Positions 7,283 through 64,000 are shown, counted from the first letter of the stretch. The stretch is DNA of 64,000 bases from Candidatus Doudnabacteria bacterium RIFCSPHIGHO2_02_FULL_42_25 (GCA_001777665.1 MFEQ01000004.1:129331-193330); one strand, 5' to 3'. Translations and numbers: made by a program. The notes: generated by a model not told the origin, from the sequence alone.

Positions 7283-7316
7283 CCTGCCTGCCGGTAGGCA
7301 GGTATTCACTTTTATA
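7283..7316 (+). terminator. Rho-independent terminator hairpin CCTGCCTGCCGGTAGGCAGG plus a T-rich tail
   Basis: Perfect GC-rich stem directly after the stop codon. It is one copy of a recurring palindrome family also seen at 62678 and 63107. Confidence 0.6.
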
Positions 7317-38941: not shown

Positions 38942-39335
38942 GGGGCTGATTGATTCGACAAGTGTTCTTTCAAATTTACTGCAAGTCCGATTAGCCTACT
39001 CTTTCGGTTAAAAAGAAAAGGTAAATCATAATTGCCACCTCATTGGTAAACAAAGTTAAAACAGCTTTTGCTGCTTTCAGCTTTGCTCCAGCTCTCGCTT
39101 AACTGTGAGGCTGCACCGACCCCTCGTCGTCTGCTAGAGGACCTCCGGTGTTATATTTGTAGACTTACTTTGACTGACGCTCGACATTCAAAGGACATCC
39201 GCCAGTTGGCGGAAGAGCAAACTTAAACCGTTTTGGTCCTGCTTCTATGGTTTAAGCCAAACAAGCAGGTCTAAACTTGTAGATGTGGATTTGAAAAATA
39301 TTTGGACGGGAGTTCACTACTCCCCAGCTCCACCA
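38942..39335 (+). ncRNA. ssrA: tmRNA (SsrA)
   Basis: 5' GGGGCTGATTGATTCGACA pairs with 3' GGACGGGAGTTCACTACTCCCCAGCTCCACCA, giving a tRNA-Ala-like acceptor with the G3:U pair. Internal tag reading frame ends ...GCT CCA GCT CTC GCT TAA (..APALA*). Adjacent to smpB. Confidence 0.85.
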
Positions 39336-61883: not shown

Positions 61884-62651
61884 TTAGCGCTTACGTTTTA
61901 GCTCTGCCAATATTTCTTCGTGCAAAAATCCGTTTGATGCGAGGATATTTGTTGTATTTTTCTTAATTGGGTTTCCATCAAAGTCTGTAACTTTTCCTCC
62001 TGCCTCGGTGACTATAAGCGATGGTGCAGCTATATCCCAAATATTAGTTTTTGCTTCCATGATAACTTCTAATTTTCCTTGTGCGAGTAGATGGTACATC
62101 CAACAATCACCCGATCCACGTCTGCCTCGAGCTTTTCTTGTAATGTTACTCAAGTTATCAAGATAGCCTTTATCTACAAAATAATTAAAATTACCAAATG
62201 TCACATAGGATTCTTCAAGGTTTCTTACTTTAGAGACTGAAACTGGTTTTCTATTGACGAATGCACCTTTGCCTTTCTCTGCATACATCAACTCTTTCAT
62301 TAAGGGTAAGTTACTTACTCCAAGTATAACTTCGTTATTATGAAATAAAGATATTAAGGTACCAAAAAGAGGAATACCCCGAGAATAATCTTTGGTTCCA
62401 TCGATCGGATCAATTATCCAAGTATATTCCGTGTTATTATTTTGTTGTCCTAATTCCTCCCCTAAAAAGGAATGGTCAGGAAATATTTTCTTAATTGTTT
62501 CAACAATAGTTTTTTCTGCAAGCTGATCTGCAATTGTAACAGGGCTGTTATCAGATTTTAGAGAAATTTTAATATCAGGAGAGAGGTATTCTAAAATTAT
62601 CTTTTCTGCGTTTTTTGCTGCTTCAATTCCGACTTCTAAATATTTACTCAT
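61884..62651 (-). CDS. Inositol monophosphatase family protein (SuhB/CysQ-like)
   Basis: Metal-binding motifs WIIDPIDGT and DGTKDY, and GGK...DFDG. Start set at MSKYLEVG. The longer upstream extension has no homology. Confidence 0.8.
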   Translation of the reverse strand: MSKYLEVGIEAAKNAEKIILEYLSPDIKISLKSDNSPVTIADQLAEKTIVETIKKIFPDHSFLGEELGQQNNNTEYTWIIDPIDGTKDYSRGIPLFGTLISLFHNNEVILGVSNLPLMKELMYAEKGKGAFVNRKPVSVSKVRNLEESYVTFGNFNYFVDKGYLDNLSNITRKARGRRGSGDCWMYHLLAQGKLEVIMEAKTNIWDIAAPSLIVTEAGGKVTDFDGNPIKKNTTNILASNGFLHEEILAELKRKR

Positions 62652-62677
62652 GGTATTAATATAACAAAAAACACCAG

Positions 62678-62698
62678 CCTTGCCTACCGGCAGGCAGG
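62678..62698. repeat. Palindrome family 3 copy (reverse complement CCTGCCTGCCGGTAGGCAAGG)
   Basis: Near-identical to the terminator hairpin at 7283-7302. Confidence 0.6.
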
Positions 62699-62778
62699 CT
62701 TTCGCTAATGTGCTTCTGAAATTTTGAGCATAAAAATAACCTGTGCTACTCGTCCGTTGGGACTTCACGCAGGTTAAT

Positions 62779-63018
62779 TCAATCGTAGTCGTTCGGTTTG
62801 AACACACCTGCACCGAACGAGGACAACTCGTCGTCCTCCTTTGTTCGACCACGGTCTTCCCGTTCCGAGGAATCGCTCTCGACCTTGGCATCGTCATCAA
62901 ACGAATGCGGTCTCAGAATACTTCCGCCGAGAGACGAGGGATCCCAGTCGTCTGCCTTATCGGTTTTTCGTCTTCTACGCACAAACCCTCCAATCAAAAA
63001 TATAATAACAAAAAACAC
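62779..63018 (-). CDS. Small protein with N-terminal TM helix and acidic tail (GTG start)
   Basis: ORF only; richer in GC than the flanks. Confidence 0.3.
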   Translation of the reverse strand: MFFVIIFLIGGFVRRRRKTDKADDWDPSSLGGSILRPHSFDDDAKVESDSSEREDRGRTKEDDELSSFGAGVFKPNDYD

Positions 63019-63106
63019 TAGCTTTCGCTAATTTTTTCTTTGCTAGCCACTAATTTTCCCAAATCTATACATATGTGAAAATTTGGGAAATTGCCTTTCT
63101 CGCTTC

Positions 63107-63127
63107 CCGCCTGCCGGCGAGGCAGGC
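63107..63127. repeat. Palindrome family 3 variant GCCTGCC-GGCGA-GGCAGGC
   Basis: Read directly. Confidence 0.5.
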
Positions 63128-63194
63128 AACCCGTTCGAATCCTACGCTCAAAGAAATAGAAAAAATCCCGACCGAATGGTCAGGAATTTTTCTT

Positions 63195-63269
63195 TGGCTC
63201 CGACGGTAGGATTCGAACCTACGACCTGGGGATTAACAGTCCCTCGCTCTACCGCTGAGCTACGTCGGA
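63195..63269 (-). tRNA. tRNA-Asn (anticodon GTT)
   Basis: Reverse complement: acceptor TCCGACG...CGTCGGA-G-CCA, D-arm GCTCAGCGGTAGAGC, anticodon loop CUGUUAA, T-arm GTAGGTTCGAATCCTAC. Confidence 0.85.
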
Positions 63270-63515
63270 ACGTGGTGTAAATTTTTTCACAAACAATCTG
63301 CCTTGATAACTTTTTAATTGCTTTTCTCGTTTCAAAGCTTCTTGGCGTGTGCCAACCGTTTCAGAATAGATAAGTTGCCACTCGCCGTCAAACCTTGAAG
63401 TATAACCCTTAAAAGTTTTTGAATTATGGAGATTTAATCGCACTTCGAGATTTATGGTTTGACCGATATAGATTTTACTAGCAGATTTATTATAAATTGC
63501 GTAAACAGTATACAT
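63249..63515 (-). CDS. GIY-YIG nuclease family protein (88 aa)
   Basis: VYAIYNK...IYIGQT...LHNS GIY-YIG core. The 3' end overlaps the tRNA-Asn 5' end by about 20 nt. Flanked by a duplicated tRNA segment. Confidence 0.65.
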   Translation of the reverse strand: MYTVYAIYNKSASKIYIGQTINLEVRLNLHNSKTFKGYTSRFDGEWQLIYSETVGTRQEALKREKQLKSYQGRLFVKKFTPRSDVAQR

Positions 63516-63518
63516 AAG

Positions 63519-63575
63519 TCCCTCGCTCTACCTCCGCCAGCTGGCGGAGAGCTACGTCGGAATAATAAACGAATA
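63519..63575 (-). pseudogene. Partial duplicate (pseudo-tRNA) of the tRNA-Asn 5' half, interrupted by an 18-nt perfect palindrome
   Basis: agtccctcgctctacc + tccgccagctggcgga + gagctacgtcgga, against the intact copy agtccctcgctctaccgctgagctacgtcgga at 63238-63269. Confidence 0.6.
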
Positions 63576-63705
63576 CTGAACAATTTTAACAATTTTTTCT
63601 AAAATTATCAAGTAGCTAAACATGCTGATTTTTTCATTGTTTTTGGGCTGGACTCCCAATCAAGTTTTTGCTAAAATTGCTAGACAACTTCAAGGAGATA
63701 ATGCC

Positions 63706-64000
63706 GTGAACCGAGTGCTCGAACCCGAGGAATTGATGGATGAAGTAGCCCAGGCGGAGGCATACGCCACATCGGATTTCGCCGAACCCCACGAGGCGTT
63801 TGTCACGCGCTTCGCCGAAACCTTTCCAGATTTCAGTAGCGGTAAAGTAGCCGACCTGTGCTGCGGACCCGCGGATCCGACGATCCGGTTTGCTCGCAGG
63901 TACCCTGATACTTGTGTCGTGGGTTACGATGGCGCAGAGTCCATGCTCACTTTTGGGAGAAAGGCTGTGACGCAAGCGGGACTCGATTTTCGGATCAGCT
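63706..64000 (+). CDS. Class I SAM-dependent methyltransferase (GC-rich), 3' end outside the window
   Basis: SD AAGGAGA 7 nt before GTG. Motif I VADLCCGPADP. Open to the window edge, so it is absent from the ORF track. Confidence 0.5.
   Translation, partial: MNRVLEPEELMDEVAQAEAYATSDFAEPHEAFVTRFAETFPDFSSGKVADLCCGPADPTIRFARRYPDTCVVGYDGAESMLTFGRKAVTQAGLDFRIS

Follow-up and report, generated by a model that had tools for sequence, protein, structure and literature searches.

A minimal GIY-YIG nuclease cassette lodged in tRNA genes of Patescibacteria, a possible family of selfish, homing-type elements

Introduction

SegB, a GIY-YIG endonuclease of phages, cleaves within tRNA genes, even in the genome that encodes it; it is statistically associated with tRNAs across phages and drives recombination-dependent tandem amplification of segB together with a tRNA, and a C-terminally truncated SegB is mentioned as well (PMC13096335). 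By analogy, SegB is the closest known analogue of, and the best precedent for, the cassette that we describe here from a 64-kb stretch of a Candidatus Doudnabacteria genome (the whole stretch analysed is called the window). As in the Seg-type genes of T4-like phage tRNA clusters, a free-standing GIY-YIG gene adjoins a tRNA, and tandem arrays occur in both systems. Seg proteins are longer and possess a C-terminal DNA-binding part, whereas the cassette protein amounts to ~82 amino acids of catalytic domain only. Seg genes reside in phage and the cassette in a cellular chromosome, at a fixed position with the stop codon of its open reading frame (ORF) inside the tRNA, accompanied by a pseudo-copy of the tRNA 5′ half and by a conserved D-loop hairpin. 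The protein is not homologous to Seg proteins over its full length, the similarity to phage homing endonucleases being limited to the first ~35 residues.

Group I introns of tRNA genes likewise insert in the anticodon-loop region of an essential tRNA and leave the gene functional, and they occur in the same tRNA-Asn of relatives that carry the cassette. The cassette differs from them in lacking a ribozyme and in restoring the gene by duplication of its 5′ half, not by splicing. Collaborative homing, in which a free-standing endonuclease gene lies next to an intron, has reportedly been described by Bonocora and Shub and by Zeng and colleagues, 2009. Phages and islands of the integrase type also target tRNA genes and, through a partial tRNA copy, keep an intact gene; they duplicate the tRNA 3′ end, extend over kilobases and carry a gene for a tyrosine or serine recombinase, whereas the cassette duplicates the 5′ half, spans ~330 bp and has a GIY-YIG nuclease as its only gene. 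Neither a recombinase gene nor a duplicated tRNA 3′ end (att sites) is present between or at the repeats in the window.

No description of the cassette arrangement was found in the searchable literature. One source mentions tRNA group I introns of the Candidate Phyla Radiation in passing only (PMC8172020), and another reports GIY-YIG ORFs only in rRNA insertions (PMC11270868). We rate the cassette as a novel variation on a known kind, that of free-standing GIY-YIG endonuclease genes associated with tRNA genes.

Results

Organization of the locus

On the minus strand, the locus is ordered as promoter, partial tRNA-Asn copy, ORF, intact tRNA-Asn(GTT) and terminator, with the following features:

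63583-63611, minus strand: promoter-like site TTGATA-17 nt-(TG)TAAAAT, with 10/12 consensus matches and a TG ahead of the -10 element
63549-63561, minus strand: upstream copy of tRNA-Asn nucleotides 1-13, TCCGACGTAGCTC, an exact repeat of 63257-63269
63533-63548, no strand assigned: GC-rich 16-nt palindrome or hairpin TCCGCCAGCTGGCGGA, conserved, in place of the D-loop AGC
63517-63532, minus strand: upstream copy of tRNA-Asn nucleotides 17-32, GGTAGAGCGAGGGACT, an exact repeat of 63238-63253
63249-63515, minus strand: 88-aa GIY-YIG ORF (Pfam PF01541, E = 4.6e-18)
63195-63269, minus strand: intact tRNA-Asn(GTT) with an encoded CCA end (ARAGORN; Rfam RF00005, 72.3 bits against a gathering score of 29)
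63166-63185, minus strand: intrinsic-terminator-like hairpin and T run, closing the promoter-cassette-tRNA unit

Transcription is predicted to start ~14 nt upstream of the 5′ end of the pseudo-tRNA. The first repeated segment comprises the acceptor 5′ strand, U8, A9 and the 5′ strand of the D stem; the second comprises the remaining D arm and the 5′ strand of the anticodon stem, its last base being the U before the anticodon. Both are identical to the corresponding tRNA nucleotides and each occurs exactly twice in the 64 kb, as compared to mean counts of 0.00 and 0.06 in 100 shuffles, which bears out the original prediction of a duplicated tRNA-Asn 5′ segment. The second copy, which that prediction had placed at 63519-63575, does exist; its real span is 63517-63561, the upper coordinate having been set ~14 nt too far. 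The proposal that the palindrome replaces the D arm does not hold, as the D stem is retained and only the three D-loop bases AGC are swapped for TCCGCCAGCTGGCGGA. The palindrome itself is perfect over 16 nt, and it attains the 18 nt initially ascribed to it when the flanking C and G are counted (63532-63549).

The cassette measures ~330 bp, and the sole gene between the repeats is the GIY-YIG ORF, situated, as had been anticipated, between the two copies with its 3′ end overlapping the tRNA. The ORF starts one base past the end of the upstream tRNA-Asn copy, and the GAGGGA within that copy (63517-63532), 4 nt ahead of the ATG, could by inference serve as the ribosome-binding site. The stop codon (63249-63251, in the context GG-TAG-AGC) lies in the D arm, 21 nt inside the tRNA, and the final 7 codons, stop included, come from tRNA sequence. 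We presume that the intact tRNA-Asn(GTT) downstream of the cassette is the regenerated, functional gene. A Rfam search of window positions 62000-64000, at E up to 1, detected no group I ribozyme (RF00028) and no remnant of one between the pseudo-half and the tRNA.

The GIY-YIG protein is found with identical sequence on 24 contigs. In 6/6 contigs compared, the window region matches exactly at the DNA level over the stretch that each covers; the cassette being identical in all six, there is no presence/absence polymorphism within the window species. The inositol monophosphatase adjoining the cassette is 100% identical to a Candidatus Doudnabacteria RIFCSPLOWO2_02_FULL protein.

The cassette protein is a minimal GIY-YIG domain

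The protein matches PF01541 at 65.7 bits (cut-off 22.6), with the domain spanning residues 1-70, and the residues Y5, Y16-I17-G18, R26, H30 and E64 are invariant in 30 homologues. The AF2 model (pLDDT 92.8) consists of a three-stranded sheet and helices, followed by a tRNA-encoded tail that is disordered or of low confidence. Foldseek matches comprise UPF0213, Slx1, I-TevI and UvrC N-terminal domains, all of the GIY-YIG fold; the closest solved structures are those of the UPF0213 proteins BH0048 and EF2693 and of the Slx1 nuclease domain, which match better than I-TevI or UvrC (1ywl at E = 5.5e-4; 1zg2; Slx1 TM-scores up to 0.66). Like its best matches, the UPF0213/COG2827 proteins (EF2693, BH0048, YhbQ-like), the cassette protein is a single URI/GIY-YIG domain. 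To our knowledge, neither a function nor a tRNA linkage has been reported for UPF0213 proteins. Relative to Slx1, the cassette protein is without Slx4 and without the RING domain, both of which Slx1 needs.

A DNA-binding module typical of homing endonucleases was not found in the 82-88-aa protein; since only the ~82-residue catalytic domain is present, site specificity remains unexplained. The homing-endonuclease families of PHROG match residues 1-33 only (E = 6e-6), and the NCBIfam model for group I intron endonucleases reaches 23.8 bits, below its cut-off of 56. Cleavage by the nuclease, its target and its homing activity are inferred, in the absence of cleavage data.

The cassette is widespread in Patescibacteria

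A profile search returned 837 cluster representatives at E <= 1e-10 and 9644 at E <= 1e-3. Close homologues number in the hundreds in Patescibacteria and are typically 82 aa long; 29 aligned homologues are 64-81% identical to the window protein, and the homologue alignment contains 25 invariant columns. Between lineages, the ORFs share ~61% nucleotide and ~60% amino-acid identity, and 81/81 ORFs have no stop codon within their first 78 codons.

We fetched 80 homologous loci from genomes of different Patescibacteria species. The tRNA-Asn 5′ part lies directly downstream of the ORF in 75 of the 80, with an anticodon loop that is intact in 66 loci and interrupted after CTGT in 9; seven of these nine interruptions are group I introns (RF00028, 59-104 bits), and one group I intron in the downstream tRNA-Asn carries an HNH ORF. 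Among the five remaining loci, three end at a contig edge or a run of Ns, one (L067) is at tRNA-His and one (L034) is degenerate. The overlap between ORF and tRNA is exactly 10 nt in about 40 loci; the window falls into a less common class, in which 21 nt are shared. The conserved C-terminus is Ile-Pro-x-stop, encoded by aT-TCC-xxx-xTA-G, and the stop codon is therefore furnished by U8-A9-G10 of the tRNA. The ORF has no stop codon of its own, relying on U8-A9-G10 in most relatives and on the D arm in the window.

As far as can be judged from sequence alone, the family is widespread and old with a fixed architecture, and the window copy is not a recent insertion. With the cassette design recurring in dozens of related species and at other tRNAs, the cassettes seem to form a family of selfish elements, so far undescribed, that target tRNA genes.

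The pseudo-half resembles the tRNA of its own locus

The pseudo-half was compared with the tRNA across the 56 loci that share the main hairpin position. The tRNAs of these loci represent 17 different acceptor sequences. The pseudo-acceptor strand is identical to that of its own tRNA at 7/7 positions in 50/56 loci (89%), versus 8.8% of cross-locus pairs. Over nucleotides 1-13, identity to the own-locus tRNA is 98.8% as against 80% across loci, a value matched by 0/5000 permutations. The 3′ strand of the D stem follows the same trend (96.9% versus 88%), while nucleotides 26-35 reach just 50% identity to the own tRNA versus 34% across loci. Within this last stretch, a TATAAT box has evolved in many loci.

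Given that the pseudo-half matches the local tRNA while the ORFs are only ~61% identical in nucleotide sequence, simple retention from an ancient duplication does not account for the match; the identity requires that the copy arose from the gene at its own locus, or else gene conversion or selection. As a cause of the co-variation, pairing between the pseudo-acceptor and the 3′ strand of the tRNA was considered and discarded, as inspection indicated that most mismatching loci would break such pairing. The predicted fold of the entire precursor keeps the real cloverleaf together with a local hairpin, and pseudo-acceptor/tRNA 3′ pairing is unsupported. The dinucleotide AT ahead of TCC upstream of pseudo-halves was also considered as a relic of an ORF tail; this idea was rejected, except in true tandem arrays, because empty tRNA-Asn genes likewise show ...AT-TCC.

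A conserved GC-rich hairpin marks the pseudo-half

A palindrome-type hairpin lies in a tRNA-like 5′ fragment at most 140 nt upstream of the ORF in 80/80 Patescibacteria loci, and the 16-mer is identical to that of the window at 16/16 positions in 58/86 loci. All 39 distinct sequences (100%) keep the 7-bp stem paired; three pairs exhibit compensatory double changes (for example CCGCTGTACAGCGG and TTCGCT...AGCGAA), one U-G pair occurs, and the observed covariation score was reached by 0/500 shuffles. The palindrome is a conserved component of the family and not a local accident, its sequence conservation being far above what a mere spacer would need.

The position of the hairpin in the pseudo-half varies: it can follow nucleotide 8, nucleotide 13 or the D arm, or it can replace the D arm. 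In L024, L060 and L071 one hairpin is nested within another, and further copies are located in a group I intron (L019) and in pseudo 3′ tRNA fragments (L013, L073). The tmRNA gene of the window genome carries it at 39198-39213 with 15/16 bases matching; the other fetched loci, examined to test the generality of the hairpin in Patescibacteria tmRNAs, contained no tmRNA gene. Copy number is low, at about 2 per 64 kb in the window. A further palindrome with 3 mismatches at window position 22149 falls in a Pro/Gly-rich coding stretch and was attributed to chance, as were most of 55 exact matches in viral contigs, which are mostly GC-rich and none of which is in a tRNA context. Rfam searches of the hairpin elements matched no known RNA family, ribozymes included. 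Of all parts of the cassette, the hairpin is understood least. Three roles were considered, each inferred and without data: i) a means of blocking the nuclease site in the copy left behind, ii) a breaker of the direct repeat, and iii) a site for nuclease binding or cleavage.

Empty and filled sites, other tRNAs and a second clade

For an empty-site search, metagenomes were scanned for the tRNA-Asn anticodon arm and orthology was assigned via the conserved upstream rpoD. Comparison of orthologous loci via the inositol monophosphatase was uninformative, as its nearest homologues are 60% identical and synteny is lost; the rpoD-tRNA-Asn locus was used instead. Most tRNA-Asn genes in the metagenome sample, which come from many bacteria, are without a GIY-YIG gene upstream. 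The rpoD-tRNA-Asn locus is empty in L200 (Azambacteria GW2011_GWB2_46_37, an exact RpoD match), L213 (Parcubacteria GW2011_GWA2_47_26), L189, L177, L170, L205 and L190, and filled in L045 (another Azambacteria), L015 and L077.

The pair L200 and L045 supplies the comparison of empty and filled tRNA-Asn loci that had been suggested as a check at the outset. In L200, the tRNA lies 119 nt after rpoD. The L045 leader, homologous to the tRNA leader of L200, consists of TGYTCTTTTTATT, a hairpin and ATAT-TCC, then the pseudo-half; past the pseudo-half follow the palindrome, the ORF and the complete tRNA. Because the leader of the L045 pseudo-half aligns with that of the L200 tRNA, the pseudo-half sits where the original 5′ end was. 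This demonstrates, at the level of aligned loci, that the filled locus is an insertion relative to empty tRNA-Asn loci, in which the original promoter, leader and 5′ tRNA part stay upstream; the retained part extends from nucleotide 1 to about 32-35, with the GC hairpin in its D loop.

Further signs of movement were encountered. In L067, the cassette and the same palindrome reside in tRNA-His, and the pseudo-half is likewise that of tRNA-His. The tRNA of L052 and L041 is the one present in the empty L200, but their pseudo-halves bear the anticodon stem of another tRNA-Asn type. Tandem arrays occur in L012, L013, L023, L028 and L041, and tandem or decayed second units in these loci and L042. 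Near-identical ORF pairs across lineages labelled as different classes were not found; with the ORFs saturated at the nucleotide level, the spread is therefore old or slow, and mostly vertical inheritance of the cassette cannot be excluded from these comparisons.

A second Patescibacteria GIY-YIG clade, 30% identical, has the same cassette design. Its members are found at tRNA-Asn (L188 and L202, with an ORF end of IPG-stop or IPR-stop inside the tRNA), tRNA-Asp (L266, L270, L277), tRNA-Ile (L273) and tRNA-Phe (L265). The pseudo-copy is clearly derived from the same tRNA in several of them, such as L188, L270, L273 and L277; it is only a partial fragment in L265, and no obvious pseudo-half was seen in L275, which adjoins tRNA-Lys. 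The D-loop element of this clade, conserved and GC-rich but different from the palindrome, is ~80 nt long and possesses two hairpins, CCCGACG... and then CCGGGCCCGCC...GGCGGGGAG.

The empty and filled sites, the tRNA-His copy, the arrays and the second clade support the original prediction of a GIY-YIG cassette inserted in a tRNA gene with duplication of part of the target. As to its description as homing-endonuclease-like, the empty and filled sites agree with it, but the protein has no DNA-binding domain, and homing driven by the nuclease is inferred.

Discussion

A model for the cassette emerges in which the window locus is the resident copy of an old, selfish, homing-type element of ~330 bp that colonises tRNA genes of Patescibacteria, an explanation that we regard as probable without considering it secure. 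The promoter-cassette-tRNA unit would be transcribed as one precursor from the old tRNA promoter; with the complete tRNA immediately after the ORF, the essential gene is regenerated without splicing. The RNase P cut at the tRNA 5′ end would remove the stop codon of the ORF, from which we infer that full-length protein could come only from unprocessed precursor, keeping the nuclease scarce. The nuclease would break DNA in or next to tRNA genes, probably in the region of the D arm and hairpin, and recombinational repair would copy the cassette into cassette-free tRNA genes, the conserved tRNA sequence on both sides serving as homology arms; the tandem arrays may have been created by the same repair. 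The conserved hairpin would act as a cis element of the cassette. In the role that we prefer, it would mark and block the nuclease site in the leftover 5′ copy, and it would also split the 32-nt direct repeat, making it harder for the cassette to be lost precisely and for the 5′ copy to misfold with the 3′ half of the tRNA. The hairpin may instead be the binding site of the nuclease. Several points count against a selfish element. Classical homing immunity is absent, because a target situated inside the tRNA is restored along with the gene. The ~82-residue catalytic domain, for which there are no cleavage data, leaves site specificity unexplained. The primary ORFs are all intact, which also fits a host-beneficial gene, the copies in the window species are all identical, no recent transfer between classes is seen, and the hairpin is conserved well beyond the needs of a spacer.

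These observations bear on a rival explanation that we think unlikely, in which the locus is a domesticated, vertically inherited operon. Its GIY-YIG gene, transcribed together with tRNA-Asn, would have a host function such as repairing DNA or maintaining the genes for stable RNAs, and the leader that resembles a tRNA would, with its hairpin, form a regulatory 5′ UTR, as an operator or as an element of RNA stability or processing. The 25 invariant columns, the ~60% protein identity retained across Patescibacteria classes despite ~61% nucleotide identity, and the 81/81 ORFs free of stops over 78 codons agree with such an operon, as do the hairpin sequence identical in 58/86 loci, the fixation of the arrangement in the window species, and a fold nearer to the housekeeping-type UPF0213 and Slx1 than to I-TevI. 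A host operon accounts poorly, however, for the absence of the cassette from the orthologous site in related lineages, for the tRNA-His copy and the sister clade in tRNA-Asp, -Ile and -Phe, each with a matching tRNA pseudo-half, and for tandem arrays and decayed copies, which are typical of selfish DNA; nor is it evident why a regulatory leader should reproduce the acceptor strand of the tRNA that follows. Lacking recent inter-class transfer, intraspecies polymorphism and homing immunity, and with ORFs intact, the selfish cassette cannot displace domestication as a serious rival. Less credible still to us is descent from a homing endonuclease whose ORF once occupied the 5′ part of a group I intron, itself inserted in the anticodon loop of tRNA-Asn; it would have become an immobile relic when the ribozyme was lost and a duplication of the 5′ half rescued the gene. 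A group I intron is indeed often found right after CTGT in the downstream tRNA-Asn of relatives (7 loci, RF00028, 59-104 bits), one of them with an HNH ORF, and the pseudo-halves of the window, L015, L019, L035, L052, L058 and L059 run exactly to CTGT or to the U that precedes the anticodon, where the start codon comes next; but no ribozyme remnant separates pseudo-half and tRNA in the window (Rfam, E up to 1), many independent intron decays would be needed for the tRNA-His, -Asp, -Ile and -Phe cases, the pseudo-copy of L078 runs past the anticodon, and the conserved D-loop hairpin is left unexplained.

Two further proposals place the hairpin at the center. According to one, for which we see only a slim chance, what propagates is the GC hairpin, on which a structure-specific, Slx1-like nuclease acts, in the manner of REP elements and their RAYT transposase, and the tRNA duplication is a by-product of breaks at hairpins. 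The varied positions of the hairpin in the pseudo-half, its nested copies in L024, L060 and L071, and the copies in the L019 group I intron, in the pseudo 3′ tRNA fragments of L013 and L073 and in the tmRNA gene speak for such propagation, together with the possession of an own hairpin element by each GIY-YIG clade and the position of Slx1 among the closest folds. Weighing on the other side are the low copy number of about 2 per 64 kb, the 55 exact viral-contig matches that fit chance (mostly GC-rich, without tRNA context) and the lack of biochemical data, and we know of no precedent for hairpin transposition mediated by a GIY-YIG protein. The other proposal, speculative and in our estimate improbable, is that the cassette is a two-part mobile unit, a minimal, Slx1-like, structure-specific GIY-YIG nuclease with a cognate GC-rich hairpin as its recognition element. 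Insertion of the hairpin alone, at AGC(T/G)G sites that resemble the D loop in genes for stable RNAs, would explain the nested copies and its presence in the tmRNA gene, a group I intron and pseudo-tRNA fragments. Were this proposal true, few autonomous systems of DNA mobility would be as small, and the mechanism would be unlike classical homing. In a related possibility, the pseudo 5′ half of the precursor would pair with the tRNA 3′ half, yielding an mRNA capped by a tRNA in the manner of tmRNA.

Should the selfish cassette that we favor be confirmed, it would represent a third route into an essential tRNA gene, beside self-splicing introns and integrase elements that duplicate a 3′ fragment: a cassette of ~330 bp would borrow the promoter of the tRNA, and even its stop codon, while duplication of the 5′ half regenerates the gene. 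It would furnish a testable substrate hypothesis, tRNA-gene DNA or GC hairpins, for the uncharacterised UPF0213-like GIY-YIG proteins, and it would extend the story of phage SegB and tRNAs to the cellular genomes of the Candidate Phyla Radiation. For the annotation of Patescibacteria genomes, tRNA-Asn pseudo-halves and ORFs that overlap a tRNA would then be expected features, and not errors.

Repeats and GC-rich hairpins elsewhere in the window

The upstream partial copy of the tRNA-Asn 5′ end (the pseudo-half) carries a 16-nt GC-rich palindrome, and a search allowing three mismatches, for which shuffled sequences gave a mean of 0.10 matches, recovered a similar sequence in the tmRNA gene.

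39198–39213, plus strand: palindrome-like TCCGCCAGTTGGCGGA, within the tmRNA gene (38942–39335)

Fifteen of the 16 bases are shared with the cassette palindrome, and the position corresponds to the pseudoknot 3/4 region of the tmRNA, where the alignment is poor.

Nearer to the cassette, the intrinsic-terminator-like hairpin downstream of tRNA-Asn is flanked by an inverted partial copy that covers the tRNA T arm, 3′ end and trailer, and which resembles a pseudo 3′ fragment in reversed orientation.

63133–63173 and 63178–63218: 41-nt inverted partial copy pair, 78% complementary
63109–63127: GC hairpin GCCTGCCGGCGAGGCAGGC, adjoining the inverted copy

Further along, a direct repeat bounds a segment whose GC content is 0.49–0.54, relative to about 0.35 nearby, and which holds a short ORF. 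The GC hairpin CTTGCCTACCGGCAGGCAGG interrupts one repeat copy and recurs, almost unchanged, in a distant part of the window; the repeat region showed no differences across the covering contigs compared (L001–L004).

62661–62709 and 63005–63032: direct repeat ATAACAAAAAACACYAGC..TTTCGCTAAT
62779–63018, minus strand: 79-aa ORF
7283–7302: hairpin near-identical to CTTGCCTACCGGCAGGCAGG, immediately 3′ of a gene's stop codon

Variation and group I introns at related loci

Among the homologous GIY-YIG loci, the unit of pseudo-half, hairpin and GIY-YIG ORF is tandemly repeated at L012, L013, L023, L028, L041 and L042, with the second ORF decayed in some of them. The tRNA 3′ end is duplicated downstream at 6 of 58 loci. 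At L013 (1888, 2056) and L073 (1880), pseudo 3′ tRNA fragments that follow the tRNA contain copies of the palindrome, and at L024, L060 and L071 (about 1440–1490) one palindrome is nested within another.

Group I introns interrupt tRNA-Asn genes of related Patescibacteria at the anticodon, immediately past CTGT (RF00028, 59–104 bits); such introns lie downstream of the GIY-YIG ORF at L008, L010, L014, L036, L037, L058 and L064. Two more, at L019 and L039, were recognized by eye, the former containing a palindrome copy (1837). The L010 intron encloses a 110-aa HNH endonuclease-like ORF.

A second GIY-YIG clade

A second clade of small GIY-YIG genes (30% identical) was found at L188, L202, L265, L266, L270, L273, L275 and L277, each gene immediately upstream of a tRNA (tRNA-Asn, Phe, Asp, Ile or Lys). 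The tRNA-Phe cassette of L265 is separated by a few hundred bases from a 16S rRNA gene that contains a group I intron.

L265, 2054–3240, minus strand: 16S rRNA gene with group I intron (RF00028, 76 bits)

No obvious pseudo-copy was seen at L275, and that of L265 is reduced to a partial fragment. In most of the eight loci the 5′ part of the adjoining tRNA is repeated upstream as a pseudo-copy, and these copies are split by a conserved two-hairpin GC element.
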